Below the pieces are notes generated by a model, which was not told the origin of the DNA, searched no databases, and saw nothing but the letters and a program-made list of their open reading frames with translations. From assembly GCA_964355095.1 (NCBI GenBank), contig CAYHCX010000017.1, positions 1 through 57,345 of the forward strand: 57,345 nt of DNA. The letters are read 5' to 3'. Shown piece after piece: positions 15,932 to 49,426 of this stretch. The position numbers and the translations under genes are program-made. Source of the stretch: an uncultured Acidobacterium sp. Lineage in GTDB: Bacteria > Acidobacteriota > Vicinamibacteria > Vicinamibacterales > UBA2999. Within the stretch, counting starts at the first letter, position 1. Every line of letters starts with the position of its first letter.

Positions 15932-16909
15932 ATGGACGTCGATCACTTGCCGCACCTGGTGTGTCCGGCCTGCCGTGGCGCCCTCGAATTGCTCGCGGTC
16001 GCGACGAATGCGGGCCGCGTGATCGAGGGCCAGCTGACGTGTCCCGAGTGCCGCCGACCGTACCCAATTGTCGGTGGCATCCCTCGATTCGTGGATGCCA
16101 GCAATTACGCCGCCAGCTTCGGCTATCAGTGGCTGCGGCACGCTCGCACGCAATACGACAGTGAAAGCGGAAAGGCGATTACCGAACGCAGGTTTTTCTC
16201 GGCGACCGGTTGGCCACGGCGCATGGAGGGCCAGCAGATTCTCGAAGTAGGCAGCGGGAGCGGCCGCTTCACCGAACAGGCGGCTCAGACCGGTGCGTTC
16301 GTGGCGTCGGTGGATTACAGCCGAGCGGTCGAGGCGAACCATGCCTCCAACGGACACCTGGCGAACGTATTGATCGTGCAGGCGGATATCTTCGCGCTGC
16401 CATTCGCAACGGGGTCGTTCGACAAGGTGTTCTGTTTCGGCGTGTTACAGCACACACCGGATCCCGAACGAGCGTTTCTCGCGCTTCCGGCGATGCTGAC
16501 TGTGAATGGACAGTTGGCCATCGACGTCTATTACAAGAGCCTCGCCACCACGATTCTGAACCTCAAATACCTCGTTCGCTGGTTGGTGCGCGGTGCCCGC
16601 GCCGATCGATTGTATGCGGGCGTCGAGAGGTGGATTTCGTGGACGTGGCCGCTCGCGCGCATTGTCGCAAGGATTCCGAAGCTTGGTCCGGCGTTGTTGC
16701 ACCGGCTGATCATCCCGTACTATTCGCTCGGATTGAGCGATGACCAGGCTCGTATCTGGGCCACGCTCGACGCCTTTGACATGCTGTCGCCCCGCTACGA
16801 CTCGCCGCAGCGCGTCGCCGACGTCCAGCGCTGGTTCGAGCGCGCCGGGCTTCGACAAGTTCGCGTCGGTCGCGGCTCCAACGGCATCGTCGCCGCGGGT
16901 CAGCGATGA
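15932..16909 (+). CDS. Class I SAM-dependent methyltransferase with N-terminal Trm112-like zinc ribbon
   Basis: CPACRG...CPECRRPYPIVGGIPRF, then SAM motif I ILEVGSGSGRF and VFCFGVLQH. Confidence 0.8.
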   Translation: MDVDHLPHLVCPACRGALELLAVATNAGRVIEGQLTCPECRRPYPIVGGIPRFVDASNYAASFGYQWLRHARTQYDSESGKAITERRFFSATGWPRRMEGQQILEVGSGSGRFTEQAAQTGAFVASVDYSRAVEANHASNGHLANVLIVQADIFALPFATGSFDKVFCFGVLQHTPDPERAFLALPAMLTVNGQLAIDVYYKSLATTILNLKYLVRWLVRGARADRLYAGVERWISWTWPLARIVARIPKLGPALLHRLIIPYYSLGLSDDQARIWATLDAFDMLSPRYDSPQRVADVQRWFERAGLRQVRVGRGSNGIVAAGQR

Positions 16910-17904
16910 GCGCGCCGGTGGTGACGGTGCTGCTTGCGGTCCGCGACGCCGCGCAGCATATCGATGCGGTCGTCGAGAATATCCTGTCACAAGCATTCGC
17001 TGATCTGGAGCTGCTGGTTGTCGACGATGGTTCGGCCGACACGACGCGGGCGCGGCTGAAGGGGGTGCGCGACGCTCGCGTGCGCGTGCTGGAACAGCCG
17101 CGGCTCGGCCTGACCGCGGCGCTCAGTCGGGGAGTGAGCGAGGCCCGCGGAGAGTTCGTGGCGCGCCAGGATGCGGACGATCGCTCCCATCCCGATCGCC
17201 TCGCCAAACAAGTGGCGCTGCTACGGGCCCGACCAGAGGTGGCGTTGGTCGGCACCGGCGTTCGGGTCGTCGACTCCTCGCGGCGTCTGCTCGGCGACTA
17301 CGTGTACCCGACTGCGCATAAAGCCATCATGCGCGCCTTGTTCGACCTGTCAAATCCACTGCCGCACACGTCGATCATGTTTCGGCGCCGCGAGGTGGCG
17401 GCGTGCGGCGGCTATCGCGGGCGGTTCCTGAAGTCGCAGGAGTACGATCTGTTCCTGCGGGTCGGCGAGCGGCACCAACTGGCGACGATCGCGGATCCGC
17501 TTTGCGAACTGGAACATTCGATGACGTCGATGACCGGGGCGGCCGCCGACGGCGAGCAATTCGAATACGGTGTCCTGGGCCTGGTCGCGGCGGTCATCCG
17601 GCGAAATGGGTGGCCGGATCCGCTTGATGCACCGGACGGTGACCGGTTCCATCAACGATATCGCGAGTGGTATCGGACCAGCGAGCTGCCAGCGGCTTTT
17701 CGATCCCGTCTGCTACGGCGCGCGGCGCGACTCTCGTGGGCGGAGGCGCGGCCATTCGCCGCGCTACGCCATGCGGCGCGCAGCGTCATCGTCGATCCCT
17801 GGTGGGCCCGTGACGAACTCGTGCCGTGGGCGACTCCCCGTGCCGCTTTGGTTGCCACCCGCTGGGCGACAGCGCATCGGCCGATGCCCCACGGCAGAGG
17901 TTGA
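16906..17904 (+). CDS. GT2-family glycosyltransferase
   Basis: ATGA overlap with the upstream gene. VTVLLAVRDAAQHI..., LLVVDDGSAD, RQDADD. Confidence 0.85.
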   Translation: MSAPVVTVLLAVRDAAQHIDAVVENILSQAFADLELLVVDDGSADTTRARLKGVRDARVRVLEQPRLGLTAALSRGVSEARGEFVARQDADDRSHPDRLAKQVALLRARPEVALVGTGVRVVDSSRRLLGDYVYPTAHKAIMRALFDLSNPLPHTSIMFRRREVAACGGYRGRFLKSQEYDLFLRVGERHQLATIADPLCELEHSMTSMTGAAADGEQFEYGVLGLVAAVIRRNGWPDPLDAPDGDRFHQRYREWYRTSELPAAFRSRLLRRAARLSWAEARPFAALRHAARSVIVDPWWARDELVPWATPRAALVATRWATAHRPMPHGRG

Positions 17905-17910
17905 GATACC

Positions 17911-18621
17911 ATGGTGTCTGCAAGCATTCAACGCCGCATTGATCGCTGGTTCCCCGGCGCCGTCGCCGCCCATGATGTCTATTTGCGAATGGTCGCCGAG
18001 CGCGCCGCCCCGGCCGAGCGGGTGCTGCATCTTGGCGCTGGACGAGACATCCTGAACGTGCGATCGGCATTGGCCGGCAAGATCGCGGTCGCGCTCGATC
18101 TCGGTCGGGAAGGGCTGTTACAGAATCCCAACCACCGACGCGTCGTTGCCGACGCCGGCTGTTTGCCGGTCCAGAACGAGACATTCGATCTGATTGTTTG
18201 CGAGCACGTCTTCGAGCATCTGGAGCGCCCGGGCTTGGTGCTGGCGGAGTGCGCCCGTGCGTTGCGTCAGGGCGGTTCGCTGGTATTCTTAACGCCGAAT
18301 CGCCTGAGCTACATCGCCGTCGTATCTGCTTTGACGCCGCATCGTTTTCATGTAGCGTATCGATCGCGGTTGGCCGCAATCACAGAAGCGGACACTTTTC
18401 CGACCTTCTATCGGTTGAATACGAGACGTCGGATCCGGGACCTGGGCGAGCGGGCTGGGCTGAGGCTCGATCGGTACGCCACGATTACCGGCTGCCCGAC
18501 GTATCTGGAACTGAACGACTTCGTGCACCGGATCGGAGTGTTGGGGCATTGGTTGATCGAGCGCGGGCCATCGACGTTTCACATTTCGCTCGTGGGTGCG
18601 TTGAGTAAACCGGCGGATTGA
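17911..18621 (+). CDS. Class I SAM-dependent methyltransferase
   Basis: VLHLGAGRD motif I-like and FDLIVCEHVFEHLERP. Confidence 0.7.
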   Translation: MVSASIQRRIDRWFPGAVAAHDVYLRMVAERAAPAERVLHLGAGRDILNVRSALAGKIAVALDLGREGLLQNPNHRRVVADAGCLPVQNETFDLIVCEHVFEHLERPGLVLAECARALRQGGSLVFLTPNRLSYIAVVSALTPHRFHVAYRSRLAAITEADTFPTFYRLNTRRRIRDLGERAGLRLDRYATITGCPTYLELNDFVHRIGVLGHWLIERGPSTFHISLVGALSKPAD

Positions 18622-18652: not shown

Positions 18653-19630
18653 ATGTCCAATGTGTTGATCGTCGGAGGCGCGGGCTATGTCGGCGGAGCG
18701 CTCACGGACGTCTTGTTACAGACAGCGCACAGCGTCCGTGTCTACGACACGTTGCTGTACGAGGAGTCGTATCGCAAGCCGGTCGACTTCGCTCTTGGAG
18801 ACTGCCGCGACTGGAATGCGCTCGGCCCGCACTTGAAATGGGCCGACGTGGTGGTATGGCTGGCGGCGCTCGTCGGCGACGGTGCCTGCTCGGTCGATAC
18901 GACTATCACCGAGGGGATCAACTACCACTCGGTTCGCGAGCTGGCCGAACGGTTCGACCGGCGCATTATTTTCACATCCACCTGTTCGGTGTACGGCGCG
19001 CAGGACGGGCTGCTTGATGAAACCTCGCCGCTCAACCCCCTATCGCTTTACGCCAAGACAAAGCTCGAGGCCGAACAGCACCTGGTCGATCGGGACGCGA
19101 TGGTGTTCCGCCTTGGCACCCTGTTCGGGGTTGGTGACTGCTTCTCACGGATTCGCCTCGACCTGGTCGTCAACGTCCTGACCGTGAAGGCGTGTCTCTA
19201 TAACAAGGTCAGCGTGTTTGGCGGCGATCAGTACCGGCCGCTGCTGCATGTACGGGACATCGCCGATGCGATTGCGCAGAGCATCGACTCCGACGTTCGC
19301 GGACTGTTCAATCTGCACTCGGTCAATATCAAGATTACCGATCTGGCCGATACGATGCGGCAATTTTTCCCCGGTCTCGAGGTCCAGAAGACGGAGATGA
19401 AGTTCCAGGACAGCCGAAACTATCGGGTCACGAGCGACAAGGCGATGCGCGCGTTCGGGTTCAGCGCGCGCCGCACGGTCGAAGACAGCATTGTCGAGCT
19501 GCGCGACATCGTCCAGTCGAACCGCATCAAGAATGTCGCAATCTCGCGGCACTCCAATCACCGATACCTGAAGGAACTACTGGAACGTCCGGCGTCACCC
19601 CTGGGGTACGAGGCTCCCACTCCGATATGA
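18653..19630 (+). CDS. NAD-dependent nucleotide-sugar epimerase/dehydratase (extended SDR)
   Basis: VLIVGGAGYVGGAL, STCSVYG, YAKTKLEAE (YxxxK). GGAGGAG lies about 14 nt upstream of the ATG. Confidence 0.85.
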   Translation: MSNVLIVGGAGYVGGALTDVLLQTAHSVRVYDTLLYEESYRKPVDFALGDCRDWNALGPHLKWADVVVWLAALVGDGACSVDTTITEGINYHSVRELAERFDRRIIFTSTCSVYGAQDGLLDETSPLNPLSLYAKTKLEAEQHLVDRDAMVFRLGTLFGVGDCFSRIRLDLVVNVLTVKACLYNKVSVFGGDQYRPLLHVRDIADAIAQSIDSDVRGLFNLHSVNIKITDLADTMRQFFPGLEVQKTEMKFQDSRNYRVTSDKAMRAFGFSARRTVEDSIVELRDIVQSNRIKNVAISRHSNHRYLKELLERPASPLGYEAPTPI

Positions 19631-20079
19631 CCTATCCTACCGACGCGCCGACGCTCATCGAGGGCGGCTTGGCCATCGACGATCGCGGCCGGCTCGCCTT
19701 CGTGAACGGCTTCGAGCCCAAAGACATCAAGCGCTTCTACGTGGTCGGCAACCACCAGGCCGGGTTCGTGCGCGCGTGGCATGGGCACAAGCTTGAGGCC
19801 AAATTCTTCTTCGTCGTATCGGGATCATTACTGGTGGGCGCCGTCAAGGTTGACGACTGGGACCAGCCGTCGCGCGATCTGCCGGTGAAGCGCTACGTGC
19901 TCTCGGCGGACAAACCGTCGATCCTTTACGTGCCGGCCGGAATGGCGAATGGCTTGATGTCTCTAACCGCGGACATGCGGGTGCTCGTGCTGTCGACGAC
20001 GACGCTCGATCAGAGCCTTGGCGACGACTATCGATTCGATGCGCGCTACTGGGACTGCTGGCACGTAGTAGAACGCTGA
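19627..20079 (+). CDS. Cupin-fold sugar isomerase/epimerase (WxcM C-terminal / FdtA-like)
   Basis: ATGA overlap with the upstream gene. DDRGRLAFV...FVRAWHGHKLEAKFFFVVSGSL pattern typical of the small RmlC-related cupins. Confidence 0.65.
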   Translation: MTYPTDAPTLIEGGLAIDDRGRLAFVNGFEPKDIKRFYVVGNHQAGFVRAWHGHKLEAKFFFVVSGSLLVGAVKVDDWDQPSRDLPVKRYVLSADKPSILYVPAGMANGLMSLTADMRVLVLSTTTLDQSLGDDYRFDARYWDCWHVVER

Positions 20080-20088: not shown

Positions 20089-20820
20089 ATGCCCGAACTG
20101 AGCCTGTTGATTCCCTGCCTGAACGAGGCCCGGCACCTGCCCGACCTGCTCGCTCGCCTCGAGTCCGTCTGCACGACCACGGACCTCGACGTGGAGACGA
20201 TCCTGCTAGATGATGCGAGCACCGATGAGACGCTGCAAGTTGCGCAAGCCCTGCGCGCCAAGCACCGGCCGTTGAATATTCGTGTCATCCACCGGTTCGA
20301 GCCGCGGCGCGGCTTTGGCGCGTTGGTGCGCTACGGGATTGCCCATGCTTCCGGTCGGTATTTCCTGCTGTTGACCGCCGATGGCACGCACCCGATTGAA
20401 GACATTCCACGCTATCTGGCCGAGGCGCGTCAGGGCGCGCAACTGGTGCAGTGTTCGCGGTACGAACGCGATGCGGATCACCACAACATCCCCGGCCGCT
20501 TCAAGACCTATCAGGGCCTGTATCGCGCCACGGCGAAGTGGCTGCTTGGCTGGGACCCGCGCGACCCCACCTGCTCGTTCAAACTGATCGATCGCACGTT
20601 CCTGCTGGCGATCGGCGTGCGTGCTTTGAACCTGTCGCTGATCCCGGAACTCGCGTTCAAAGTCTATCTTGCCGGCGGCAAGATCGTCTTTCTTCCGGGG
20701 ACGCAAACGTTCCGGGAGAAAGGTATTTCGCACTTTCAGTTCCTCCGGGAATGCACGAGTTACGGATATGTGCTGACCCGCGCGACCTTGCACCGGGCCC
20801 GACTGCTTGCTTGGTTCTGA
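20089..20820 (+). CDS. GT2-family glycosyltransferase, polyprenyl-phosphate sugar synthase (DPM1/GtrB/ArnC)-like
   Basis: LSLLIPCLNEARHL, ILLDDASTDET, short single-domain size. Confidence 0.75.
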   Translation: MPELSLLIPCLNEARHLPDLLARLESVCTTTDLDVETILLDDASTDETLQVAQALRAKHRPLNIRVIHRFEPRRGFGALVRYGIAHASGRYFLLLTADGTHPIEDIPRYLAEARQGAQLVQCSRYERDADHHNIPGRFKTYQGLYRATAKWLLGWDPRDPTCSFKLIDRTFLLAIGVRALNLSLIPELAFKVYLAGGKIVFLPGTQTFREKGISHFQFLRECTSYGYVLTRATLHRARLLAWF

Positions 20821-21589
20821 CCCGACGCTACGAGGCGCGCTCGCCACCGGCTATGCCGTAGTCGTGCCGATGTTCAACGAGGCCGCCAATGTCGAGCGCT
20901 GCATCAACGCGATTGGTCCCGCGCTGTTGCGTACCGATCCTCTGGGATCCTTCATCGTGGTGAACGACGGTAGCAGCGACGCGACCGGCGCGATCCTCGA
21001 TCGGCTGGCGCCGCAGGTGCCGCGCCTGACAGTGGTCCACCACGAGTACAACCGCGGTTATGGTGGTGCGCTCGTTACCGGCACCCAGACCGCGTCCCGC
21101 CAGAACCTCGGTTACGTCTTGTTCATGGATTCAGATCTCACTAACGATCCGAAGTACATCGAAGGCTTCGTCGCGCGGATGCGCGAGGACGTCGATGTCA
21201 TCAAGGCGACGCGGTACTCCCTTGGCGGGGGTGTGCGCGGCGTTCCGGCATGGCGCGTGGCCATCTCGAGAACCGGAAACCTGCTGAGCGGCGTGTTATT
21301 CGCTTTGCCGCTCGCCGATCTGACGAACGGATTCCGGGCGGTCAAGACGTCGTTGCTGGTTGACCTGCCGTTCCAGGAAAAGGGCTTCGCGATCGTGATG
21401 GAGGAGCTCTATCGTCTCGCGCCGATTGCGTCGACCTATGCCGAGGTTCCGTATGTGCTGACCAGCCGGGAAGCCGCAGCTAGCGTGTCGCATTTCGCCT
21501 ATCGACCGAGAGTGTTATTCCAATACCTGAAATACGGCATTTGGACGTGGTGGACGAGAATGACGGGCTTAGCCAACCGGGCACGCTAG
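20807..21589 (+). CDS. GT2-family glycosyltransferase, polyprenyl-phosphate sugar synthase (DPM1/GtrB/ArnC)-like
   Basis: YAVVVPMFNEAANV, IVVNDGSSDAT, YNRGYGGAL, FMDSDLTNDP. Start uncertain (TTG 20807). Stop TAG 21587-21589 coincides with the IS630 insertion junction. Confidence 0.8.
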   Translation: MLGSDPTLRGALATGYAVVVPMFNEAANVERCINAIGPALLRTDPLGSFIVVNDGSSDATGAILDRLAPQVPRLTVVHHEYNRGYGGALVTGTQTASRQNLGYVLFMDSDLTNDPKYIEGFVARMREDVDVIKATRYSLGGGVRGVPAWRVAISRTGNLLSGVLFALPLADLTNGFRAVKTSLLVDLPFQEKGFAIVMEELYRLAPIASTYAEVPYVLTSREAAASVSHFAYRPRVLFQYLKYGIWTWWTRMTGLANRAR

Positions 21590-22665
21590 TGTAGTGTCTC
21601 CAACGCTTCTTTACATTTGGCGACTTTAGCCAAAATCTGCTCCACGGACGCAGTCCACTTGAAGATTTTGGGATTCTGGTTGTGATTGTCCAAATATTCC
21701 TGGATCGCGGCGATCAACTCCGGCACGTTCTTGAAGACACCACGGCGGATGCGTTTGTCGGTGATGTCGCGAAACCAGCGCTCCACCATGTTCACCCACG
21801 AACTCGACGTCGGGATGAAGTGCAGATGAAACCGCGGATGTCGCTTGAGCCAGGATGTCACGCGCGGATGCTTGTGGGTCGCGTAGTTGTCCGCGATGAT
21901 GTGCAGATCCAGTGCGGACGGGGTCTCGACATCGATCGTGTTGAGGAAGCGGATGAATTCCTGATGCCGATGGCGTGGCATGCACTGGCCGATCACCGTG
22001 CCATCGAGCATGCTGAGGGCCGCAAACAATGTGGTCGTGCCATTGCGCTTGTAATCGTGCGTCATCGTGCCGCAGCGGCCCTTCTTCATGGGGAGACCGG
22101 GCTGGGTGCGATCGAGAGCCTGAATTTGGCTTTTCTCGTCAATGCACAGGACCAGGGATTTGTCCGGAGGATTGAGATACAGGCCGACGACATCGTAGAG
22201 CTTGTCGACAAAGTGCTTGTCTCGACTGATCTTGAAGGTCTTGAGGAGATGGGGCTTGAGGTTATGTTGCTTCCAAATGCGTTGAACGCTGGCCGGACTG
22301 ATGCCCTGGGCTTCGGCCATCGTGCGCACGCTCCAGTGCGTCGCGGTCGGCGGCTTGGTGCGCAGCGTCGCGTCGATGACGGCACGCACTTTCCTTTCGG
22401 AGATGCTTGGCAGACGACCGGGACGTGGAGCGTCCTTTTCCAGCCCCGCAATTCGCAACGCCAGAAAACGTTCGCGCCACAGTTGCACGGTTGGCCTGGA
22501 AACGCCCACCTCCCGTGCGATGTCTTGATTGGGCACCCCGTCGCCGGCCATCGTGACGATGCGGGCACGCAGCATCAGCCGCAACGGGAAACTCCTCCCC
22601 CGTCCCCATGTTGCCAGGGTGGCCCGCTCTTCGCGGGAAAGCACGACCGGTGGTGCCGTTCTCAT
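21586..22665 (-). CDS. IS630-family DDE transposase (DD35E)
   Basis: N-terminal HTH region (NQDIAREVGVSRPTVQLWRERF). Catalytic candidates are D in LCIDEKS, D in IIADNYA and E in NMVERWF, with 35 residues between the last two. ATG 22665 is preferred over TTG 22701. The stop codon is completed by the flanking TA. Confidence 0.9.
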   Translation of the reverse strand: MRTAPPVVLSREERATLATWGRGRSFPLRLMLRARIVTMAGDGVPNQDIAREVGVSRPTVQLWRERFLALRIAGLEKDAPRPGRLPSISERKVRAVIDATLRTKPPTATHWSVRTMAEAQGISPASVQRIWKQHNLKPHLLKTFKISRDKHFVDKLYDVVGLYLNPPDKSLVLCIDEKSQIQALDRTQPGLPMKKGRCGTMTHDYKRNGTTTLFAALSMLDGTVIGQCMPRHRHQEFIRFLNTIDVETPSALDLHIIADNYATHKHPRVTSWLKRHPRFHLHFIPTSSSWVNMVERWFRDITDKRIRRGVFKNVPELIAAIQEYLDNHNQNPKIFKWTASVEQILAKVAKCKEALETLH

Positions 22666-22722
22666 GCCGAAACCATCGCTCTCGACGGTGCCGTGTGTCA
22701 AGTTATTTATGACACACTACAC
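21589..22722 (-). mobile_element. IS630-family insertion sequence, 1134 bp, apparently intact
   Basis: Terminal inverted repeats GTGTAGTGTCTC (21589-21600) and GACACACTACAC (22711-22722) are 11/12 complementary. The element is flanked by TA (21587-21588 and 22723-22724), and both junctions read CTAG. It has a single transposase ORF. Confidence 0.9.
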
Positions 22723-22739
22723 TAGGGGCCCGATATGCT
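22709..22739 (+). promoter_or_regulatory. Possible IS/flank hybrid promoter: -35-like ATGACA inside the right IR, -10-like TATGCT in flanking DNA (19-nt spacer)
   Basis: Read directly. The spacer is longer than optimal. It faces the downstream radical SAM gene. Confidence 0.25.
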
Positions 22740-30338: not shown

Positions 30339-30342
30339 GCAG

Positions 30343-40182: not shown

Positions 40183-40950
40183 ATGAAGGTGGTCATTCTG
40201 GCGGGCGGGCTCGGCACGCGGATCGGCGAGGAAACGTACCTCAAGCCGAAGCCGATGATCGAGATCGGCGGCAAGCCGATTCTCTGGCACATCATGAAGA
40301 TCTACTCGTCGCACGGGCTCAACGAGTTCATCATTTGCCTGGGCTACAAAGGCTACGTGATCAAGGAGTATTTCTCGAACTACTTCCTACACACCTCCGA
40401 CGTGACGTTCGACATCCCGCGGAACAAGATGGAAGTGCACCACAACAACGCCGAGCCGTGGCGCGTGACGCTGGTCGATACCGGCGAGCAGACCATGACG
40501 GGCGGTCGCTTACTGCGGGTTCGCTCGTTTCTTGACGAAGAGGATTTTTGCTTTACCTACGGCGACGGCGTCAGCGACATCAACATCACCGAGCTTATTG
40601 CGTTTCATAAGGCGCAGGGTACGCTGGCCACGGTGGCGGCCGCGCAGCCGCCCGGGCGGTTCGGCTCGCTCAACATTGCCGGCACCAAGGTCGTGAACTT
40701 CGACGAGAAACCGGTCGGGGACGGCGGCTGGATCAACGGCGGCTTCTTCGTGCTATCGCCCAAAGTGATCGATTACCTGGAGGGCGACGACACGGTGTGG
40801 GAGCGCGACCCGCTCGAGCGCCTGGCGGCCGAGCAGAACTTGTCGGTGTTCCTGCACAAGGGCTTCTGGAAACCGATGGACACGCCGCGCGACAAGGCGG
40901 CCCTCGAGGAGTTGTGGGCGACCGGCGCGCCGTGGAAAACATGGAGCTGA
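40183..40950 (+). CDS. rfbF: Glucose-1-phosphate cytidylyltransferase
   Basis: MKVVILAGGLGTRIGEETYLKPKPMIEIGGKPILWHIMKIYSSHG...TYGDGVSD...EKP..DGGWINGGFFV. 255 aa. Confidence 0.9.
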   Translation: MKVVILAGGLGTRIGEETYLKPKPMIEIGGKPILWHIMKIYSSHGLNEFIICLGYKGYVIKEYFSNYFLHTSDVTFDIPRNKMEVHHNNAEPWRVTLVDTGEQTMTGGRLLRVRSFLDEEDFCFTYGDGVSDINITELIAFHKAQGTLATVAAAQPPGRFGSLNIAGTKVVNFDEKPVGDGGWINGGFFVLSPKVIDYLEGDDTVWERDPLERLAAEQNLSVFLHKGFWKPMDTPRDKAALEELWATGAPWKTWS

Positions 40951-42173: not shown

Positions 42174-42180
42174 GCATCCC

Positions 42181-43215
42181 ATGATCTCGAGAGTTCTGGT
42201 AACTGGTTCCGAAGGCTATATCGGCTCGGTGATGGTGCCGATGCTCCTCGCCGAGCAGTTCGAGGTGGCCGGGCTCGACGTCGGCTTCTACGCCGACGGC
42301 AATCTCACCGGTGACGCGACGCGCGGCTATCCGGTGATCGCCAAGGACGTTCGCGATGTGACCGCGAAGGATCTGGACGGCTTCGACGCCGTGATTCACC
42401 TGGCAGCGCTCAGCAACGATCCGCTGGGACATCTCGACGAGGCGCTGACCTACGACATCAACTTCACCGGATCGGTCCGCATCGCAAAGGCGGCGCGGTC
42501 GGCCGGCGTCCGCCGCTTCATTTTCGCGAGCTCGTGCTCGCTCTATGGCTTGTCGAGCAAAGTGCTCATCGAGAGCGATGCCGCCAATCCCCAGACCGCC
42601 TACGGTCGATCAAAGGTGATGGCCGAGGAGGCGATTGGGCAGCTGGCGACCGACACTTTCAGCCCGACGTTCATGAGGAATGCGACCGCCTACGGCGTCT
42701 CGCCGCGGATGCGGTTCGATCTGGTGGTCAACAGCCTCGCCGGTTTCGCGCACACCGAGGGCGCGATTCGCATCATGGGCGACGGCACCCCGTGGCGGCC
42801 GCTCGTGCACATTCGCGACATCAGTGCCGCGTGTATCGCCGTCCTGAGGCAAGACCAATCCGCGATCCATAACCAGGCGTTCAACGTTGGCGACGATCAC
42901 GAGAACTATCAAGTGAAGACGATCGCCGAGCGGATCCGGCAGCAGGCGTACCCGGCGTGCGCGATCACCGTCGCCCAGCAGAATGCCGGCGATACCCGCG
43001 ACTACCGCGTCGGCTTCGGCAAACTCAAAGAGCGCCTGCAGTTCGCGCCGGAGGTGAGCCTCAACCAGGGCGTGGACGATATCCATCGGGCCTACGCGAA
43101 CATTCCGCTGACGGCCGGGCTCTTCGACCATCGCCTCTATACGCGGCTCAAGCAGATTCAGTGGCTGCAACAGCAACGCCAGATTGACCCGGCGCTGCGG
43201 TGGGCCGGACAGTGA
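42181..43215 (+). CDS. NAD-dependent nucleotide-sugar epimerase/dehydratase (extended SDR)
   Basis: VLVTGSEGYIGS, ASSCSLYG, YGRSKVMAE. Confidence 0.85.
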   Translation: MISRVLVTGSEGYIGSVMVPMLLAEQFEVAGLDVGFYADGNLTGDATRGYPVIAKDVRDVTAKDLDGFDAVIHLAALSNDPLGHLDEALTYDINFTGSVRIAKAARSAGVRRFIFASSCSLYGLSSKVLIESDAANPQTAYGRSKVMAEEAIGQLATDTFSPTFMRNATAYGVSPRMRFDLVVNSLAGFAHTEGAIRIMGDGTPWRPLVHIRDISAACIAVLRQDQSAIHNQAFNVGDDHENYQVKTIAERIRQQAYPACAITVAQQNAGDTRDYRVGFGKLKERLQFAPEVSLNQGVDDIHRAYANIPLTAGLFDHRLYTRLKQIQWLQQQRQIDPALRWAGQ

Positions 43216-43763
43216 CGGTCGAGACCGCACCGATTGCCGGCGCGGCGCTCGTGACCTTTCCAGGCTCGGCGGACCATCGAGGCTCCTTCGCGCGGACGTT
43301 CTCGGTCGAGGTTCTCGAGCAGCTCGGGCCGGGCCGAAGGGTGATCCAGTCGAACCATTCGATCACGCACGCGCGAGGCGCGATCCGTGGCATGCACTAC
43401 CAGTTGCCCCCTCATGCGGAAATCAAACTGGTGCGGTGCATTCACGGCGCCGTCTTTGACGTGATCATCGACCTGCGCGCCGGTTCGCCGACGTTGTTGA
43501 AATGGTACGGGGCGGTGCTCAATGCCGACAACCGGCGCACGATGTTTGTGCCCGAAGGCTGTGCGCATGGCTTTCAAGTGCTCGAGCCGGACAGCGAACT
43601 GGTCTACTTTCACACGGCGCCGTACAGCCCGCCGCACGAACAGGCCGTGCGCTACGACGATCCGGCGGTCGGCATTCAGTGGCCGCTGCCAGTGTCGGAC
43701 GTCTCCGATCGCGACCAGCGCCATCCACTGGTCGGCGGCGATTTTTCCGGCATCGTCGTCTGA
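43200..43763 (+). CDS. NDP-4-keto-6-deoxyhexose 3,5-epimerase (RmlC family)
   Basis: DHRGSFARTF, IRGMHYQ, KLVRCIHGAVFDVIIDLR, FVPEGCAHGF, YD. Start is GTG 43200 or GTG 43212. Confidence 0.85.
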   Translation: MGRTVTVETAPIAGAALVTFPGSADHRGSFARTFSVEVLEQLGPGRRVIQSNHSITHARGAIRGMHYQLPPHAEIKLVRCIHGAVFDVIIDLRAGSPTLLKWYGAVLNADNRRTMFVPEGCAHGFQVLEPDSELVYFHTAPYSPPHEQAVRYDDPAVGIQWPLPVSDVSDRDQRHPLVGGDFSGIVV

Positions 43764-43779
43764 CGCCGAGAGGACCCAC

Positions 43780-44742
43780 ATGAAGACCGACAAGCAGTAT
43801 CTCGAGGAAGAAGCGCAAGCCTTCGATCAGCGCATTTCGACGCGCGTCGAATCGGGTTATGTCGCCGATCTCCGCCGCGCCGTGAAGTGCGATTACTTTT
43901 ACAAGAGCTTCTGGCGCGAACCGCATTTCATCAAGCTTTACCTCGGCTGGATCGTCGACGGCATTCTCGAACTGCTCAAGACCCACGTCGGTCCCGGCGC
44001 GCGGATTCTCGACGTCGGCTGCGGCGCCGGTTACATGTCGCTGGAGTTCGCCCGCAACGGCTACCATGTGACGGCCATTGACATTTCTGAGGCGTGCATC
44101 ACGACGGCGCGCGAGGTGCTCACAGACAATCCGTACAAGGCCGGGTTCGGGTCGCTGGAATATCACGCCATGCCTTTCGAGGCGGTGGAGGGGCGGTACG
44201 ACGTGGTGATGTTCTGCGTGTCGATGCATCACCTCAGCGACGTGCAGGCAGCCGTCGACAAATCGGTTTCGATGCTGGCTCCGGGCGGCCATCTGATTTG
44301 CTACGAGCCGTGCCACGATCGATTCGAGCGGAAGGACGCCGCGCAAGTGGCGTTGATCCGCGGACTGATGTCGATTGCCGGTCTCTGGTTCGACCCGTCG
44401 GAACCGGGTGAGGCGACTCGCAGCGAAGCGGCGCTCAGCACCTACATCGACGATGTCCGCACGGAGTATATGACCGAGCGCGACAAGAACGAACCGGGCG
44501 GGCAGTCGCCTCACGACCTGTCGGCCGACGGCGAGCAGATCCTGGCCGCGTTGCGATCGCGCCTGACCGAAGTGGCGTTCCGGCCCGGATGCTCATTCAT
44601 CTACCGGCTGGTTGGCGGCCTGCGCGGGCCCGAACAGGTGGTGCACGATCTCGCGACCTTCATCGCTCAATACGAGCGCCTGATGGTGAGCGAAGGGGCG
44701 CTCAATCCGAACATGTTCTTTTTCGCCGGCCGAAAGCCGTAA
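43780..44742 (+). CDS. Class I SAM-dependent methyltransferase
   Basis: ILDVGCGAGYMS, VTAIDIS, VVMFCVSMHHL. Confidence 0.8.
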   Translation: MKTDKQYLEEEAQAFDQRISTRVESGYVADLRRAVKCDYFYKSFWREPHFIKLYLGWIVDGILELLKTHVGPGARILDVGCGAGYMSLEFARNGYHVTAIDISEACITTAREVLTDNPYKAGFGSLEYHAMPFEAVEGRYDVVMFCVSMHHLSDVQAAVDKSVSMLAPGGHLICYEPCHDRFERKDAAQVALIRGLMSIAGLWFDPSEPGEATRSEAALSTYIDDVRTEYMTERDKNEPGGQSPHDLSADGEQILAALRSRLTEVAFRPGCSFIYRLVGGLRGPEQVVHDLATFIAQYERLMVSEGALNPNMFFFAGRKP

Positions 44743-44751
44743 CCGGACTCG

Positions 44752-45522
44752 ATGAAACTGACAATTGATCTGGACGCGGGGCGCGTCGTGGTCGACGACA
44801 ACGGCCGCGAGCAGATCCTCCCAATTGGATCGCCCGACGCGTTCGCGGCGATCGCCAAGGCCTACATCCGCGCGGGCTGGGACACCAAGTACGTCTACAG
44901 CTTTACCTGGCTCGGCCGGCCAATCATCCAGTTGCCGGACGACATGATTCGGCTCCAGGAGATCGTCTACGCCGTCCAGCCAGACGTCATCGTTGACATT
45001 GGCGTGGCGCACGGCGGCTCGCTCGTGTTCTTGGCGAGTCTGTGCAAGGCGATGGACCGCGGCCGCGTCGTCGGCGTCGACATCGAGATCCGTCCCCATA
45101 ACCGCGCCGCCATCGAAGCGCATCCGATGTTCAAATGGATCACCCTGATCGAGGGTGACTCGATCAGCGCCGCGGCGTCGGACCAGATTCGCGCCCAGCT
45201 GGCGCCCGGCGACCGCACACTGTTTCTCCTCGACGGCCGCCATACGCGCGACCATGTTCGCGCCGAGCTCGAGCTCTACGCACCGCTCGTCAGCGTCGGC
45301 TCCTACATCGTCGCGATGGACGGCATTCAGAAAGACATGGTGGGCGCGCCGCGATCGAGCCCGGATTGGGCGACCAATAACCCGACGGTCGCGGCGATCG
45401 AGTTCGTGCGGGACCATCCCGATTTCGTGCTCGAAGATCCGCCGATCCCGTTCAACGAAGGTACGGTCACCGTCCACGTCGTCACCTACTGGCCCCAGGC
45501 ATTCGTGAAACGCATCCGCTAG
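44752..45522 (+). CDS. CmcI (cephalosporin hydroxylase)-family methyltransferase, sugar O-methyltransferase-like
   Basis: YSFTWLGRPIIQLPDDMIRLQEIVYAVQPDVIVDIGVAHGGSLVF, typical of the CmcI fold family. Confidence 0.75.
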   Translation: MKLTIDLDAGRVVVDDNGREQILPIGSPDAFAAIAKAYIRAGWDTKYVYSFTWLGRPIIQLPDDMIRLQEIVYAVQPDVIVDIGVAHGGSLVFLASLCKAMDRGRVVGVDIEIRPHNRAAIEAHPMFKWITLIEGDSISAAASDQIRAQLAPGDRTLFLLDGRHTRDHVRAELELYAPLVSVGSYIVAMDGIQKDMVGAPRSSPDWATNNPTVAAIEFVRDHPDFVLEDPPIPFNEGTVTVHVVTYWPQAFVKRIR

Positions 45523-45523
45523 C

Positions 45524-47038
45524 GTGAGTCGTTCGCGCAGCGCCAACAACATCCTTTTCAACCTCGCCGGCCAGTCGATGCTGGTCGGCGTGAGTTTTCT
45601 TGCGTTGAAGTACGTGTTCGTGCGGCTCGGCGACGACGCGGTCGGCGTGATCTTTTTTTCGCTGACGATGAGCGCCGTGCTGAGCGCGCTGCTGGAAATG
45701 GGGATTAGCGCCGCGACCACGCGTGAGGTCTCCGGCCATCTGGAGCGCGAGCCGCTCTACGTCCATGACCTGCTGCGGACCACGTCGCTGTTCTTCTGGA
45801 GCGCCTACCTGGTGCTCATCACCATCGTCTGGCTGGTCGCGCCGCTGCTGGTGCAGCGCTGGATCGTGCTGACGTCGCTCGACCAGCCGACAGCGACGCT
45901 GACGCTTCGGATCCTCGGGATTGGCGCGCTGCTTGGCTTGCCGCGGTCGCTGTATGTCAGCCTGTTTCGCGGCCTGCAGCGCATGGACGTCAACAACGTG
46001 GTCGATCCGGCAACCGCAGTGGTTCAACAGGTCGGGATCATCGGCATTCTGGCCGCCGGCGGTGGGCTGGTCCACGTCGCCACCTGGTTGACGGCGACAT
46101 TCGCGGCCGGCGTCCTGGCATATATCTGCGTGGCGTCCCGCTTCGTGCCCGTTGCCGCGCTGGTGCCGGGCTATTCACGATCGGTCGTCAGCCGGAATCT
46201 GCAGTTCTCGACGAGCATGATGGCCATCTCCGTCTTGTCGATGATTCATACCCAGGCCGACAAGCTGGCGATCAGCAAGCTGCTGCCGCTCGGCACCCTC
46301 GGGTATTACAGCGTGTCTTACGGCCTCCTGACACGCGCGTCATTTGTGACCGGCGCGATCTCGCAGGCGGGCTTTCCCGTGTTCTCCGCCGAGTCGGCCA
46401 GCGGTGGCGGCGGACTGCTGGCGGCGTACCGGAAGTTCCAGGACCTGGTGTGTTTCACGGCGCTGCCGATCTTTGCGGCGGTCATTTTTGCGTCGTTGCC
46501 GCTGTTTACGTTCATCTTCAACGCCGACATCGCACACCTGTTGTTCCTGCCGACCGTGTTCCTGGCGATGGGCTTCTACATGAACAACGTGTTGACCATC
46601 CCGTACATGTTATCGCTCGCGGTTGGACGGCCGGATATTTCCGCGCGGTCGAATTTCCTGGCGTTGTTCGTAGTCCTGCCGGTGACGCTATGGCTGGTCT
46701 ACTACGACGGGCTGCGCGGGGCGGGATTGTCGTGGGTAGCGTACCATGTCTTTGCTTACGCCTATGCGTTGCGGCGCATCTGCGCGGAATGCCTGCACAT
46801 TTCCTATCTCAGCTGGTTCCGGCACCTGGGCCGAAGCGGCGGGTGGGGCGCCGCGGTCTACGGCGTCGCCTGGGGTTTGGTGGCGGCGGGAGGGGTGTAC
46901 TCGTGGCCGCGGCTGGTGACGGCGTATGTGCTCGGTTCCGTGGCTTTTGTGGCCGGATCGTGGTGGCTGGTCGAACCCGAGACCGTCCGCGCCGTGCGGG
47001 TCTCGAGCCGACGACTCTTGACGCGCTTGAACCTCTGA
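45524..47038 (+). CDS. wzx: Wzx-type flippase (MOP superfamily polysaccharide biosynthesis protein)
   Basis: 504 aa with about 12-14 helices. N-terminus NILFNLAGQSMLVGVSFLALKYVFVRLG. GTG start 2 nt after the upstream stop. Confidence 0.8.
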   Translation: MSRSRSANNILFNLAGQSMLVGVSFLALKYVFVRLGDDAVGVIFFSLTMSAVLSALLEMGISAATTREVSGHLEREPLYVHDLLRTTSLFFWSAYLVLITIVWLVAPLLVQRWIVLTSLDQPTATLTLRILGIGALLGLPRSLYVSLFRGLQRMDVNNVVDPATAVVQQVGIIGILAAGGGLVHVATWLTATFAAGVLAYICVASRFVPVAALVPGYSRSVVSRNLQFSTSMMAISVLSMIHTQADKLAISKLLPLGTLGYYSVSYGLLTRASFVTGAISQAGFPVFSAESASGGGGLLAAYRKFQDLVCFTALPIFAAVIFASLPLFTFIFNADIAHLLFLPTVFLAMGFYMNNVLTIPYMLSLAVGRPDISARSNFLALFVVLPVTLWLVYYDGLRGAGLSWVAYHVFAYAYALRRICAECLHISYLSWFRHLGRSGGWGAAVYGVAWGLVAAGGVYSWPRLVTAYVLGSVAFVAGSWWLVEPETVRAVRVSSRRLLTRLNL

Positions 47039-47047
47039 TGATATGCT
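47018..47047 (+). promoter_or_regulatory. Sigma70-like promoter candidate: TTGACG - 18 nt (with TGn) - TATGCT
   Basis: -35 at 47018-47023 inside the wzx 3' end, TG at 47039-47040 and -10 at 47042-47047. It precedes the AT-rich 89-bp gap before the 47128 gene. Confidence 0.4.
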
Positions 47048-47127
47048 AAAGTGTTAATATAATTGAAGTTGTCGCGGCCGCCGCGGCGAAATTCGCAAAA
47101 TCGTGTGGATCGGATTGGGTCGATTAG

Positions 47128-48363
47128 ATGAAAGTCTTCATCACCGAAGACGACATGTGCACAACCCAGAAATTGAATCTGGCTCGCGTCCAGCGCTGGC
47201 TCGAGGCCAACGATGCGTTGGTCGTCGAGACGCCGGCTGAGGCGGACAAGATTCTGTGCATGACGTGCAACGGTTGGTCCCTGCTCGAAGAGCGGTCGTA
47301 CGAACGCATCGCCCAGCTCGACGCCGAGTTCCACGAGAAGATGATTGTGATGGGCTGCGTGGTGGATTCCCACGCGGGCAAGGTCGCGGCGCGCTTTACC
47401 GGTCCGACGGTCCGGACCAAGAGTGACGGCCCGTTGTCGTTCGCAGGCCTCGAGCCGTTGTTCCCGGAGTTCAAGACGCGCCTCGAGCAAATCCCAGCGC
47501 AGTCGGTGTTCCGCCGCCGAGAAGACTATCGCGACTACAACCTGTCGAAGCGCTTCATCAACATTTCGGAAGGGTGCTCGTTCAGCTGTTCGTTCTGCAC
47601 CCACAAGCCCGGCCTCGGCCCGCGCCGTAGCCGCTCGATGGACGACATCCTCGCGCAAGTCGAGCAGTGCGTGAAAGAGGACGTGCGCGTCATCAACCTG
47701 ATGGGAATGGAGACCGCCCTTTACGGGATCGAAGTCGGCTCTTCGTACCCGAAGCTGCTGAAGGCGATCCTCGAGTTGAGCGACGCGTATGAGATCCATG
47801 TCGCGCAGTTCAATCCCGAAGGGGTCCATAAGTATTACGACGAACTGCTGCCGCTGCTGCAGAACACGCGGGTCTCGGATATTCAGGTGCCGTGTCAGTC
47901 GACGTCGACGCGGCTGCTCGCGATGATGAAGCGGAAGAATCATACCGAAGAGGTCGGCACCTTCATGACCCAGGTGCGGGCCGCGAATCGACGCGCCGTG
48001 CTCCGTACCGACCTGATTCTGGGATGGCCGACCGAGACGCCTGAAGAGCGGAAAGCGTCGCTCGACTTCGCCGGCACCTATTTCGATGAGATCGCCACGT
48101 ACACAATCGAGTTGAGCCCCGACCTGCCGGCGTGGAAGTATCAGGATCAGGCGTCGTCCCCTGAGGATCTCGCCAAGATTCTCAGGGAAAGCCGCCAGTA
48201 TCTGCGCGCGAACTTCAACGTGGTGGCGCATTCGGGCCAGCAGGACGACAGCTCGATGGCCGACGTCGAAGAGCAGCGGAAGCGGATGCGCGCGATCAAA
48301 TGGGCTGCCGCGCCGGTGGCCCTGGGCGGTTCCAACGATCACGTAGCTGCGGACCCACGCTAA
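47128..48363 (+). CDS. MiaB/RimO-like radical SAM enzyme (methylthiotransferase N-domain plus radical SAM core, no TRAM domain)
   Basis: Three N-domain cysteines at the expected spacing (DMCTTQ, LCMTCNGW, VMGCVV). CX3CX2C = CSFSCSFC at 47575-47598. The C-terminus is short and acidic or disordered rather than TRAM-like. Confidence 0.75.
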   Translation: MKVFITEDDMCTTQKLNLARVQRWLEANDALVVETPAEADKILCMTCNGWSLLEERSYERIAQLDAEFHEKMIVMGCVVDSHAGKVAARFTGPTVRTKSDGPLSFAGLEPLFPEFKTRLEQIPAQSVFRRREDYRDYNLSKRFINISEGCSFSCSFCTHKPGLGPRRSRSMDDILAQVEQCVKEDVRVINLMGMETALYGIEVGSSYPKLLKAILELSDAYEIHVAQFNPEGVHKYYDELLPLLQNTRVSDIQVPCQSTSTRLLAMMKRKNHTEEVGTFMTQVRAANRRAVLRTDLILGWPTETPEERKASLDFAGTYFDEIATYTIELSPDLPAWKYQDQASSPEDLAKILRESRQYLRANFNVVAHSGQQDDSSMADVEEQRKRMRAIKWAAAPVALGGSNDHVAADPR

Positions 48364-48451
48364 GCGAACCCCAACCGCTGCCGGTCGCGTCTGAGAAGTG
48401 CCGTGTGTACCGGCGCTTTCGCGACCGGAGCCCGAGGATGTCCAGACCTCC

Positions 48452-49426
48452 ATGTCCGAGTCACTTTCACAACTTGCCTGTCCGGAACACCACCACCTGC
48501 TCACACGAGTTGGTGATGAATTGCAGTGCCCGAAGGGTCATAGCTATCCCATCGTGCGTGGCATCCCGCGATTCGCGGGCAACGACCCCTCAGTGACGAC
48601 GTTCGGCGACCAGTGGAATTTTTTCAACTGGACGATGTTCAAGCGGCATTGGCTTGAGTACTACGTCAAGAACACCTTCGGCAACGAAGGCACCGATGTC
48701 TTCAAGGGCAAAGACATTCTGGACTGCGGCTCCGGCAGCGGCGCCATCAGCAAGTGGATGGTCGAGTACGGCGCCGAGCACCTCTGGGCCCTCGAGCTGA
48801 GTCATTCCGTCGACGGCAATATTCGCCAGAATCTGCGCGACTTGCCGAACGCCGAGATCGTGCAGTGCGACATTTCGAAACCGCCGTTTGCGCCGAATGC
48901 GGGAGGCGACCTGGTGGTCTGTCAGAACGTGATTCAGCACACCAAGTCGGTGAAGGAGACGGCCCAGGCGCTCTGGACCGTCGTGCGCCCCGGCGGCGAG
49001 TTCGTGTTGACCTGCTACATGGCCAACGACGAGCCAGGGATGCTGCGCTGGTTGCGATGGCAGTGGTTCCGCGCGTTGCGAGGGACCCTCAGCAGCATGC
49101 CGGGGAAAGTAGTCTGGGCGTATTCGTGGCTGATGTCGCACCTGGTGCCGATTCCGGTTCTCGGCCGCCTGTTGATCCTCAGTTACAGCGCGACGTGCGG
49201 TCCGGTATTTCCGGGACCCGACCGTTGGGCCCGAACGCGATACCAGACCTACGTGAATACGCACGACATGTTCGCGAAGCACTATCAACACTATCCAAGC
49301 CGGACGGAATTCCGGGCCCTCGTTGAGGGGCTGCAGCCGCCGCCGGCCCGCATCGATAACCTCGATTCCTTCTTCGGGTTTCCGACCGGGGAAGGTGTGG
49401 CCCTGCGGATCCATAAGGGCGTGTAA
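48452..49426 (+). CDS. Class I SAM-dependent methyltransferase with degenerate Trm112-like ribbon (paralog of 15932)
   Basis: CPEHHH...CPKGHSYPIVRGIPRF, ILDCGSGSGAIS, VVCQNVIQH. Start is ATG 48452 (alternative GTG 48398). Confidence 0.8.
   Translation: MSESLSQLACPEHHHLLTRVGDELQCPKGHSYPIVRGIPRFAGNDPSVTTFGDQWNFFNWTMFKRHWLEYYVKNTFGNEGTDVFKGKDILDCGSGSGAISKWMVEYGAEHLWALELSHSVDGNIRQNLRDLPNAEIVQCDISKPPFAPNAGGDLVVCQNVIQHTKSVKETAQALWTVVRPGGEFVLTCYMANDEPGMLRWLRWQWFRALRGTLSSMPGKVVWAYSWLMSHLVPIPVLGRLLILSYSATCGPVFPGPDRWARTRYQTYVNTHDMFAKHYQHYPSRTEFRALVEGLQPPPARIDNLDSFFGFPTGEGVALRIHKGV

Follow-up and report, generated by a model that had tools for sequence, protein, structure and literature searches.

Gene content of the locus

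The window, i.e. the whole 57,345-nt stretch analysed (contig CAYHCX010000017.1, from an uncultured Acidobacterium sp.), is filled over its entire length by glycan biosynthesis genes, according to Pfam scans of every substantial open reading frame (ORF); its G+C content is 60-67%, and nearly all genes lie on the plus strand (Table 1). Within it, the span 15932-49426 (~33.5 kb) holds 30 genes, 12 of which (~40%) encode methyl-transfer or radical S-adenosylmethionine (SAM) enzymes. A first-pass annotation made from the sequence had assigned families to these 12, and Pfam places every one of them accordingly, so that the observation of 12 methyl-transfer-type enzymes is confirmed; the glucose-1-phosphate cytidylyltransferase gene (g35) is an addition to its list. 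Also as described there, they are interleaved with genes for Wzx, a Wzy-like protein, nucleotide-sugar enzymes and GT2/GT4 glycosyltransferases (GTs; 7 inside the span, 11 across the window); a phosphoglycosyl transferase gene is found among them too. The family assignments stand for all 12; the B12-binding pair (g22, g31) and the MiaB-like enzyme (g42) score under every curated family cut-off, and their role as methyl or methylthio transferases is a deduction.

The flippase (Polysacc_synt, 56.9 bits), the initiating phosphoglycosyl transferase and the multiple GT2 and GT4 enzymes of a Wzx/Wzy-dependent locus are all present. The polymerase candidate g13, with nine hydrophobic segments, matches O-ag_pol_Wzy weakly (E 0.009, 15.2 bits against a cut-off of 26.6), and its orthologs (38-47% identity) adjoin methyltransferase (MT) and GT2 genes in two related loci, L012 and L014. 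The GNVR protein, a candidate chain-length regulator, reaches 26.4 bits against a cut-off of 27.7. The CmcI-type MT g40 matches positions 2-206 of the 206 of PF04989 (225.8 bits, cut-off 23.2) but scores far too low for an equivalog of the rhamnosyl O-methyltransferase of mycobacteria (NF045824, 75.8 bits against 400).

Paralog pairs among the 12 had been taken as a sign of two parallel tailoring branches. The two ribbon-MT types are real: g14 and g43 share a Trm112-like CxxC...CP...IPRF N-terminus (its motif in g43 is CPEHHH...CPKGHSYPIVRGIPRF; the two proteins are 30% identical), while a CxxCG...CxxC N-terminus is seen in the sequences of both g26 and g29. The branches themselves do not follow, as the pairs are just 28-32% identical and the genes fall into at least five separately conserved modules (see below). 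Such identities rule out recent duplication, and the pairs are old family relatives; the only close paralogs in the window are the ABC ATPases (79%) and two GT4s (54%), both outside the methyl set.

The genes of this region probably form part of a large surface-polysaccharide locus of Wzx/Wzy type (O-antigen- or exopolysaccharide-like), composed of conserved sugar-plus-methylation modules and including a cytidine diphosphate (CDP)-hexose cassette that would act by the steps proposed below. A hydrophobic, hypermethylated glycan is a plausible product.

Table 1. Features of the window, with coordinates and supporting matches (SDR, short-chain dehydrogenase/reductase; NDP, nucleoside diphosphate; E-values follow family names)
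Gene	Feature	Coordinates	Strand	Basis
	PMT_2-like membrane protein, DegT, GNAT, GNVR protein, GFO oxidoreductase, SDRs	upstream of the 15932 span		Pfam
	Two ABC-2/ABC_tran sets	2409-6899		Pfam
g13	Polytopic membrane protein, Wzy-like polymerase candidate, just outside the methyl-rich span	14561-15931	+	
g14	Class I SAM MT with N-terminal Trm112-like zinc ribbon	15932-16909	+	Methyltransf_11 2e-17, Trm112p 3e-09
g15	GT2	16906-17904	+	Glycos_transf_2 3e-23
g16	Class I SAM MT	17911-18621	+	Methyltransf_11 2e-13
	SDR epimerase/reductase	18653-19630	+	Epimerase 2e-26
	Small FdtA/RmlC-like cupin	19627-20079	+	FdtA 9e-09
	Two GT2	20089-20820, 20807-21589	+	Glycos_transf_2 1e-25, 1e-26
	IS630-family insertion sequence, outside the pathway	21586-22725	-	DDE_3 5e-20, HTH domains
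g22	B12-binding radical SAM enzyme	22749-24314	+	B12-binding 5e-22, Radical_SAM 5e-17
g23	TylCIII-type C-methyltransferase	24448-25713	+	Methyltransf_13, Methyltransf_23, Methyltransf_14
g24	RmlD-like NDP-4-ketosugar reductase	25710-26618	+	RmlD_sub_bind 3e-23
g25	UDP-GlcNAc 2-epimerase-like	26621-27856	+	Epimerase_2 1e-68; TIGR00236 189 bits, cut-off 210
g26	Class I MT with N-terminal CxxC...CxxC ribbon	27853-28755	+	Methyltransf_23 2e-25
	DUF2079 membrane protein	28674-30338	+	DUF2079 2e-46
	AsnB-type amidotransferase	30304-32250	+	Asn_synthase 1e-74
g29	Ribbon class I MT	32251-33126	+	Pfam
g30	GT2	33162-33854	+	Pfam
g31	B12-binding radical SAM enzyme	33892-35562	+	Pfam
	678-aa polytopic membrane protein	35584-37620	+	No Pfam or NCBIfam match
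g33	GT4	37617-38801	+	Ortholog 63% identical in L011
g34	GT2	38942-40174	+	Glycos_transf_2 6e-25; L012 ortholog 48%, beside the g22 ortholog
g35	RfbF, glucose-1-phosphate cytidylyltransferase	40183-40950	+	TIGR02623 451 bits, cut-off 300.25
g36	NDP-hexose 3-C-methyltransferase	40941-42173	+	Methyltransf_14 1.5e-68, Methyltransf_13 3e-24
g37	GalE-like SDR	42181-43215	+	TIGR02622 just 25.8 bits, cut-off 278
g38	RmlC-like 3,5-epimerase cupin	43212-43763	+	dTDP_sugar_isom 6e-57; TIGR01221 155.6 bits, cut-off 155.75
g39	Class I SAM MT	43780-44742	+	Methyltransf_25 4e-17
g40	CmcI / rhamnosyl-O-methyltransferase family	44752-45522	+	RMNT_CmcI 6e-67
g41	Wzx-type flippase, ten hydrophobic segments	45524-47038	+	Polysacc_synt 3e-15, Polysacc_synt_3 5.5e-14
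g42	TRAM-less methylthiotransferase-like radical SAM enzyme	47128-48363	+	Radical_SAM 1e-18, UPF0004 2e-06
g43	Class I MT with degenerate Trm112-like ribbon	48452-49426	+	Methyltransf_11 2e-14
	GT4	49511-50716	+	Glyco_transf_4 4e-23
	Initiating phosphoglycosyl transferase	50760-52205	+	Bac_transf 3e-57, 193.5 bits
	DUF218 and three further GT4s	downstream of 52205		Pfam

Recurrence of the modules in other genomes

Orthologous modules travel together in at least 10 other contigs or genomes, which disposes of chance juxtaposition, absent from any relative, as an explanation of the gene set. The recurring modules are (i) Wzy/ribbon-MT/GT2/MT, (ii) class I MT/DUF2079/AsnB, (iii) MT/GT2/B12-radical-SAM, (iv) B12 radical SAM with Wzx and GT2, and (v) the CDP-hexose cassette. 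L014 and L011 form one 24 kb contig with orthologs of g13-g16, g22, g28, g33, g39-g42 and g44, in the order g39, a 691-aa radical SAM protein, g40, Wzx, g42, Wzy-like, g14, g15, g16, another MT, DUF2079, AsnB (69%), g33, g44, B12 radical SAM, acyltransferase, g22; identities are 60% for g14, 56% for g15, which adjoins the g14 ortholog, and 54% for g16. The 691-aa protein (1209-3284 in L014, between the g39 and CmcI orthologs) has a Radical_SAM domain only and no counterpart in the window. L012 carries g37, g36, g38, an extra SDR, g40, Wzx, g22, g34, Wzy-like, g16, g17, g18 and g14 (46% identity for g14 and 44% for g16), with g17 (65%) and g18 (57%) kept as a pair. The triad g29-g30-g31 (32251-35562) is likewise adjacent in L017 (55%, 53% and 68% identity), and a Sulfuricella locus (L013) reads MT, MT, GT4, g22-like, GT2, MT, AsnB.

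In L016 and L015 the genes of the CDP-hexose cassette are packed on one strand as a tight operon; the cassette is rearranged in L004, L007, L008 (Nisaea sediminum, without CmcI), L009 and L010, and partly present on a short Azospirillum griseum scaffold (L006). A. cavernae (L005) has kept only rfbF of the cassette beside its g42-type radical SAM gene; around the latter, Pfam was informative for a PseB-like, a DegT and an RTX protein only, of ten ORFs picked, the remainder mostly having no match and probably being wrong-strand ORFs. In L008, L009, L015, L016, L017 and L005 the g42 cassette or the g31 triad has genes of nonulosonic-acid type (NeuB, CTP_transf_3, PseB-like Polysacc_synt_2, DegT) as neighbours, a hint that glycans with the modified sugar often contain pseudaminic- or legionaminic-type acids as well.

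The density of methyl-transfer genes had been called exceptional. It is so by comparison with well-studied O-antigen loci, and under an assumed (not measured) base rate of 2-5% of genome genes in these families the probability of at least 12 among 31 genes is 4e-13 to 1.4e-8. It is not so by comparison with related environmental loci, which are equally dense: methyl/radical-SAM genes number 6/20 in L012, ~9/18 in L014 with L011, 9/22 in L017 and 6/10 in L018 (30-60%), these loci having been found via methyl-enzyme homologs and thus not forming an unbiased background. Density is therefore a property of the locus type, which is recurrent, uncharacterised and a mosaic of modules. That its biosynthetic logic is undescribed, as the first-pass annotation proposed, agrees with the literature that could be searched, where we found no radical SAM enzyme in O-antigen clusters or CDP-sugar pathways, nothing relevant on B12 radical SAM enzymes with glycosyltransferases, and no link of these radical SAM families to glycan biosynthesis.

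A mosaic might also be a concatenation, in which gene sets for two or more polymers (e.g. an ABC-dependent O-polysaccharide and a Wzx/Wzy polymer), each lightly methylated, add up to the count of 12. Export could run by two routes, through the duplicated ABC-2/ABC_tran set (2409-6899) or through Wzx (45524), and the IS630 element splits the region; the 12 enzymes may therefore serve more than one polymer, a first point to set against a single pathway. Modules also occur apart in other genomes (the CDP cassette alone in L016, the triad alone in L017), and the window encodes no fewer than three polytopic proteins that resemble polymerases or GT-C enzymes. The ABC transporter genes nevertheless fall outside 15932-49426, the window genes are nearly all co-directional and closely spaced, and L012 and the L014/L011 contig each combine orthologs of several modules with just one Wzx and one Wzy-like gene in 21-24 kb. 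We consider concatenation unlikely, though worth keeping in mind.

The CDP-hexose cassette

The cassette (40183-48363) consists of seven genes, for RfbF (g35), a GalE-like SDR (g37), an RmlC-like cupin (g38), a TylCIII-type 3-C-MT (g36), a class I MT (g39), a CmcI-type MT (g40) and a MiaB/RimO-like radical SAM enzyme (g42), and what the sequences show is the families of these enzymes and, from the loci above, their conserved linkage. Plasmid matches to g35 are annotated rfbF. The C-MT g36, like g23 upstream, has a Methyltransf_13 zinc domain, a class I MT core and a Methyltransf_14 C-terminal domain, all above Pfam cut-offs. Both match the sugar 3-C-methyltransferases of solved structure MtmC (4rv9), TcaB9 (3ndi) and 5t64 over their full length (residues ~4-418) with 229-289 bits, including 289 bits for g36 with MtmC and 287 bits for g23 with TcaB9.

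The SDR g37 has the motif ASSCSLYG...YxxxK, with no acidic residue after the Ser/Thr. An identity with RfbG is ruled out by the absence of this dehydratase residue together with the TIGR02622 score (Table 1). Its best solved match is 6vo6, deposited as a 'putative sugar-nucleotide epimerase/dehydratase', which we take to be the Campylobacter heptose C4-dehydrogenase Cj1427. No cassette-linked SDR of seven related loci matches TIGR02622 at E <= 1e-10, and GalE is the best model for all of them but one, an additional 309-aa SDR in L012 whose best match, far under cut-off, is a dTDP-glucose 4,6-dehydratase model.

A TRAM-less methylthiotransferase-like family

The radical SAM enzyme of the cassette, g42, has an N-terminal UPF0004 domain (28.2 bits, cut-off 27) and no match to the TRAM domain at E <= 0.01. 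Six cysteines are invariant among 18 homologs of 55-77% identity: C11/C47/C77, the triad for the auxiliary [4Fe-4S] cluster, of which C47 and C77 align with RimO cysteines, and C150/C154/C157, which form the radical SAM CxxxCxxC motif. An AlphaFold2 model (predicted local distance difference test, pLDDT, 84) finds its best folds in MtaB, MiaB and RimO (query-normalised TM-score 0.64-0.69), and its C-terminus is helical where the TRAM barrel is expected (residues 345-394, with one short strand at 366-368).

There are at least 200 homologs of g42; identity is 55-79% for the best 120, and these proteins, of 302-420 aa (385-420 in nearly all), have UPF0004 and Radical_SAM as their only domains and no curated name. 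When homologs are clustered at 50%, the family is one cluster, followed by ~20 more distant TRAM-less clusters (27-43% identity); canonical methylthiotransferases appear only after these, at <=140 bits. The nearest named relatives come from metagenome-assembled genomes of Alphaproteobacteria (78%) and Rhodospirillaceae (66%), with A. cavernae, A. griseum and N. sediminum at 65-70%.

The family stands in a sugar-tailoring context in every locus examined. Of 11 contexts of g42 orthologs, 10 have a g39 ortholog at a distance of no more than 10 kb, and L012, without g42, is also without g39; this co-occurrence and joint absence suggest a functional pair. Even a relative of 43% identity (in L018) lies among an RmlC-like gene, a B12 radical SAM enzyme, CmcI and TylF-type MTs and GTs. 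Adjoining these genes in L018 is a fused GT2-TylF gene (5430-7142; glycosyltransferase and O-methyltransferase), a physical fusion of the logic of adding a sugar and methylating it. In the literature that could be searched, no TRAM-less methylthiotransferase clade fixed in sugar cassettes was found, nor anything relevant on sugar-directed methylthiotransferases.

Perhaps the g42 family is a sugar-directed methylthiotransferase or sulfur-insertion enzyme that acts on the CDP-hexose or the nascent glycan, g39 completing the modification. We consider this specific assignment doubtful and rather unlikely, but its consequences would be considerable: the methylthiotransferase superfamily would gain its first substrate that is a small molecule or carbohydrate, bacterial surface polysaccharides their first thio- or methylthio-sugar, and the cassette would encode a branched, multiply methylated and S-modified hexose not known before.

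The B12-binding radical SAM enzymes

Both domains of g22 and g31 exceed their cut-offs (B12-binding 78 and 70 bits, Radical_SAM 63 and 65 bits, respectively), and both proteins have the CxxxCxxC motif (residues 234-241 in g22). Their top NCBIfam match is NF038361, the P-methyltransferase family of Sden_1168, with 257 bits for g22 and 183 bits for g31 (cut-off 575). A role as phosphonate-pathway P-methyltransferases is not supported: neither score comes to half of the cut-off, and Pfam showed no phosphonate gene of phosphoenolpyruvate-mutase type among those of the window. Similarity to solved structures is weak (AprD4 53 bits, TokK 37 bits), the best for g22 being the diol-dehydratase AprD4 (PDB 6fd2). 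At E <= 1e-20 there are 709 homologs of g22 and >5000 of g31, from many phyla and all unnamed or auto-named.

Orthologs of g22 lie in glycan loci (L011 63%, L012 69%, L013 55%). What is conserved around g22 and g31 is GT2 and class I MT genes rather than genes for NDP-sugar enzymes, and for this reason the pair may act on lipid-linked or polymeric sugars. C-methylation of sugar carbons seems their most likely activity by analogy.

A proposed pathway and its alternatives

As RfbF is present, the precursor should be CDP-glucose, supplied by this enzyme. Because TylCIII-type enzymes need a 4-keto sugar, we infer the order C4 oxidation, C3 methylation, C3/C5 epimerisation and re-reduction. The GalE-like g37 would oxidise C4, and since it is without dehydratase acid/base residues, the sugar may keep its 6-OH; g36 would then methylate C3 of the 4-keto sugar and g38 would epimerise C3/C5. 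Re-reduction of the keto group could fall to g37's own NADH or to an MtmC-like reductase activity of g36, the MtmC-type C-methyltransferase of S. argillaceus being mentioned in PMC3539893 as having 4-ketoreductase activity. More methyl groups would be added by g40 and g39. Finally, the two-cluster enzyme g42 would functionalise an unactivated C-H, most likely by MiaB-like sulfur or methylthio insertion, and its partner g39 may methylate the new group. The cassette product would be a branched sugar with several C- and O-methyl groups and possibly an S-modification; the literature that could be searched has no description of it.

Elsewhere in the locus, g23 and the RmlD-like reductase g24, whose ATG at 25710 overlaps the g23 stop, would make a second branched sugar. 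The B12 radical SAM pair would C-methylate unactivated sugar carbons, and the remaining ribbon-type MTs would O-methylate residues of the repeat unit. The expected end product is a heteropolysaccharide with many C- and O-methyl groups.

Besides the two export systems, several points speak against this scheme. The cassette has neither a canonical 4,6-dehydratase nor a dedicated 4-ketoreductase, which makes guesswork of the redox chemistry and of the order of its steps. The score of g42 with TIGR00089 is 163.1 bits (cut-off 251), every equivalog model is also under its cut-off, and we know of no sulfur-containing sugar in such polysaccharides. Both g22 and g31 fall below all curated methyltransferase families (Sden_1168, PhpK, HpnR, KedN5 and others), and HpnJ, BchE and AprD4 are among the next-best NCBIfam matches, with OxsB a weak match in the PDB; reactions other than methylation are also catalysed by B12-binding radical SAM enzymes.

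Several of the presumed methyl-transfer enzymes might accordingly do other chemistry, with methyl groups nearer 8-9 and radical sugar remodelling as the unusual feature of the locus; the B12 enzymes would then carry out ring contraction, cyclisation, dehydration or epimerisation, and g42 would be a radical dehydrogenase, a dehydratase or a sulfur-inserting enzyme. This would suit the scores of the radical SAM trio, all well under curated cut-offs (257/575 for g22, 183/575 for g31, 163/251 for g42), the next-best matches just named, AprD4 as best solved match of g22, and the redox/deoxygenation step left unfilled by the missing dehydratase. It has to be set against methylation being the commonest activity of B12-binding radical SAM enzymes, a methyltransferase family being the top match of both g22 and g31, and g42 retaining the complete methylthiotransferase cluster architecture. 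Nor is g42 a simple replacement for the absent CDP-glucose 4,6-dehydratase, a candidate role that we rejected because L012 has the same GalE-like SDR and no canonical dehydratase, yet no g42. Remodelling is in our estimate quite possible, if short of probable.

The modified CDP-sugar could also be destined for protein or lipid glycosylation (flagellin, S-layer glycan, glycolipid) and not for a polysaccharide, since elsewhere the g42 cassette adjoins NeuB, CTP_transf_3, PseB-like and DegT genes, which are typical of flagellin glycosylation islands and capsules. In the window, however, Pfam scans found no nonulosonic acid or flagellar genes, and the cassette is interleaved with Wzx and GTs and flanked by the Wzy-like gene, the GNVR protein and the phosphoglycosyl transferase. 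Such a destination is thus very unlikely here, and a surface polysaccharide of Wzx/Wzy type remains the reading that we prefer.

Other features of the window

The IS630 element is intact, with 15-nt terminal inverted repeats at 21586-21600 and 22711-22725 and TA at both flanks. Its insertion point coincides exactly with the TAG stop of the preceding GT2 gene (20807-21589), and no ORF is broken. It parts the upstream genes from the block of B12 radical SAM and C-MT genes and could be polar on transcription.

The ABC set at 2409-6899 looks tandemly duplicated, its ATPases (3711-4448 and 6045-6899) being those that are 79% identical. ORF 4445-5026 has 60% identity over 45 aa to the ABC-2 permease 2409-3692; neither it nor ORF 4837-6132 has a Pfam match, and the two may be a decayed or divergent second permease. 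The sole large minus-strand gene besides the IS transposase (8547-10898) encodes a 783-aa protein with ~12 hydrophobic segments and no Pfam match, which may be a GT-C-type or polymerase-like membrane enzyme. Another large membrane protein (35584-37620) follows directly after the MT/GT2/B12-radical-SAM triad and has ~10 hydrophobic segments and a soluble C-terminal part of ~250 aa. The closest glycosyltransferase paralogs of the window are the GT4s 53008-54222 and 56094-57272 (54% identity), both of which also match the 'GT4-conflict' Pfam family.

Over the window (1-57345) Rfam gave no family at gathering score; the window thus lacks a cobalamin or SAM riboswitch, although it encodes three radical enzymes that depend on SAM or B12. 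Proteins identical in sequence, hence contigs, are present in the Logan metagenome assemblies ERR3856787, SRR24858484 and SRR24858483. A plasmid origin was dismissed, the matches being just short ones (72-80%) to single genes.

Implications

The region is a polysaccharide locus of known enzyme superfamilies, and therefore not categorically new, in an uncharacterised, recurrent variant rich in methylation and radical SAM genes. It exposes a well-defined orphan enzyme family, the TRAM-less methylthiotransferase-like proteins, along with the seven-gene CDP-sugar cassette. Surface polysaccharides govern the encounters of bacteria with phages, hosts and surfaces, and their chemical diversity is known mainly from pathogens; the present locus type, with 30-60% methyl-transfer/radical SAM genes, recurs in environmental proteobacteria and, by homology, in many other phyla. 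It raises the questions of which branched, multiply methylated CDP-sugar is made and what a sugar-linked two-cluster radical SAM enzyme does without the RNA/protein-binding TRAM domain. These are directly testable because cultured N. sediminum, A. griseum and A. cavernae carry the genes, and either answer would assign new enzyme functions and enlarge the catalogue of rare bacterial sugars.

Comparison with known systems

Methylthiotransferases are three-domain enzymes whose substrates are tRNA or ribosomal protein S12 (PMC10702137). With MiaB, RimO and MtaB, g42 shares the three cluster cysteines of UPF0004, the CxxxCxxC motif and the predicted fold; it differs in being without TRAM and under the family cut-off, and in a context that is sugar tailoring and never translation. 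GenK and GenD1 are cobalamin-dependent radical SAM sugar C-methyltransferases of aminoglycoside (gentamicin) pathways, and g22 and g31 have the same B12-binding and radical SAM architecture and a predicted action on unactivated sugar carbons. In contrast to GenK and GenD1, they come from large uncharacterised families and have genes for GT2s and class I MTs as neighbours in polysaccharide loci; comparison with PDB and NCBIfam brought up no solved or curated methylase of close similarity.

Heavy O-methylation of glycans is known from the polymethylated polysaccharides of mycobacteria, and g40 shares PF04989 with the rhamnosyl O-methyltransferase, but it is no equivalog and the rest of the enzyme set is distinct. 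Actinomycete deoxysugars (mycarose, cladinose, nogalose, noviose; enzymes TylCIII, MtmC, TcaB9, KijD1) likewise combine C-methylation with several O-methylations per sugar; those are dTDP-activated 2,6-dideoxy sugars on secondary metabolites, whereas here a CDP-hexose is made in a polysaccharide assembly locus.

The best genetic precedent in lipopolysaccharide (LPS) is the phase I O-antigen of Coxiella burnetii, for which a pathway to virenose (6-deoxy-3-C-methyl-gulose) with the TylCIII-like CBU_0691 has been proposed (PMC3539893). There too a TylCIII-type NDP-hexose 3-C-methyltransferase lies within a Gram-negative LPS locus, and an NDP-4-keto sugar undergoes C3 methylation followed by epimerisation and reduction, with no obvious dedicated 4-ketoreductase. 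The Coxiella proposal differs in its GDP or dTDP sugars, canonical 4,6-dehydratase, one C-methyltransferase and no associated radical SAM enzyme; in the present cassette a CDP-glucose synthase activates the sugar, the SDR is GalE-like and four further methyl-related enzymes are linked.

By analogy of product, the best chemical precedent appears to be CDP-vinelose (CDP-6-deoxy-3-C-methyl-2-O-methyl-L-talose) of Azotobacter vinelandii, on which the literature that could be searched contained nothing relevant and to which, to our knowledge, no genes have been assigned. The cassette has two methyl-related enzymes beyond what vinelose would need, and no canonical 4,6-dehydratase; what its product would share with vinelose is the combination of CDP activation, 3-C-methylation and O-methylation on a hexose in a Gram-negative bacterium.

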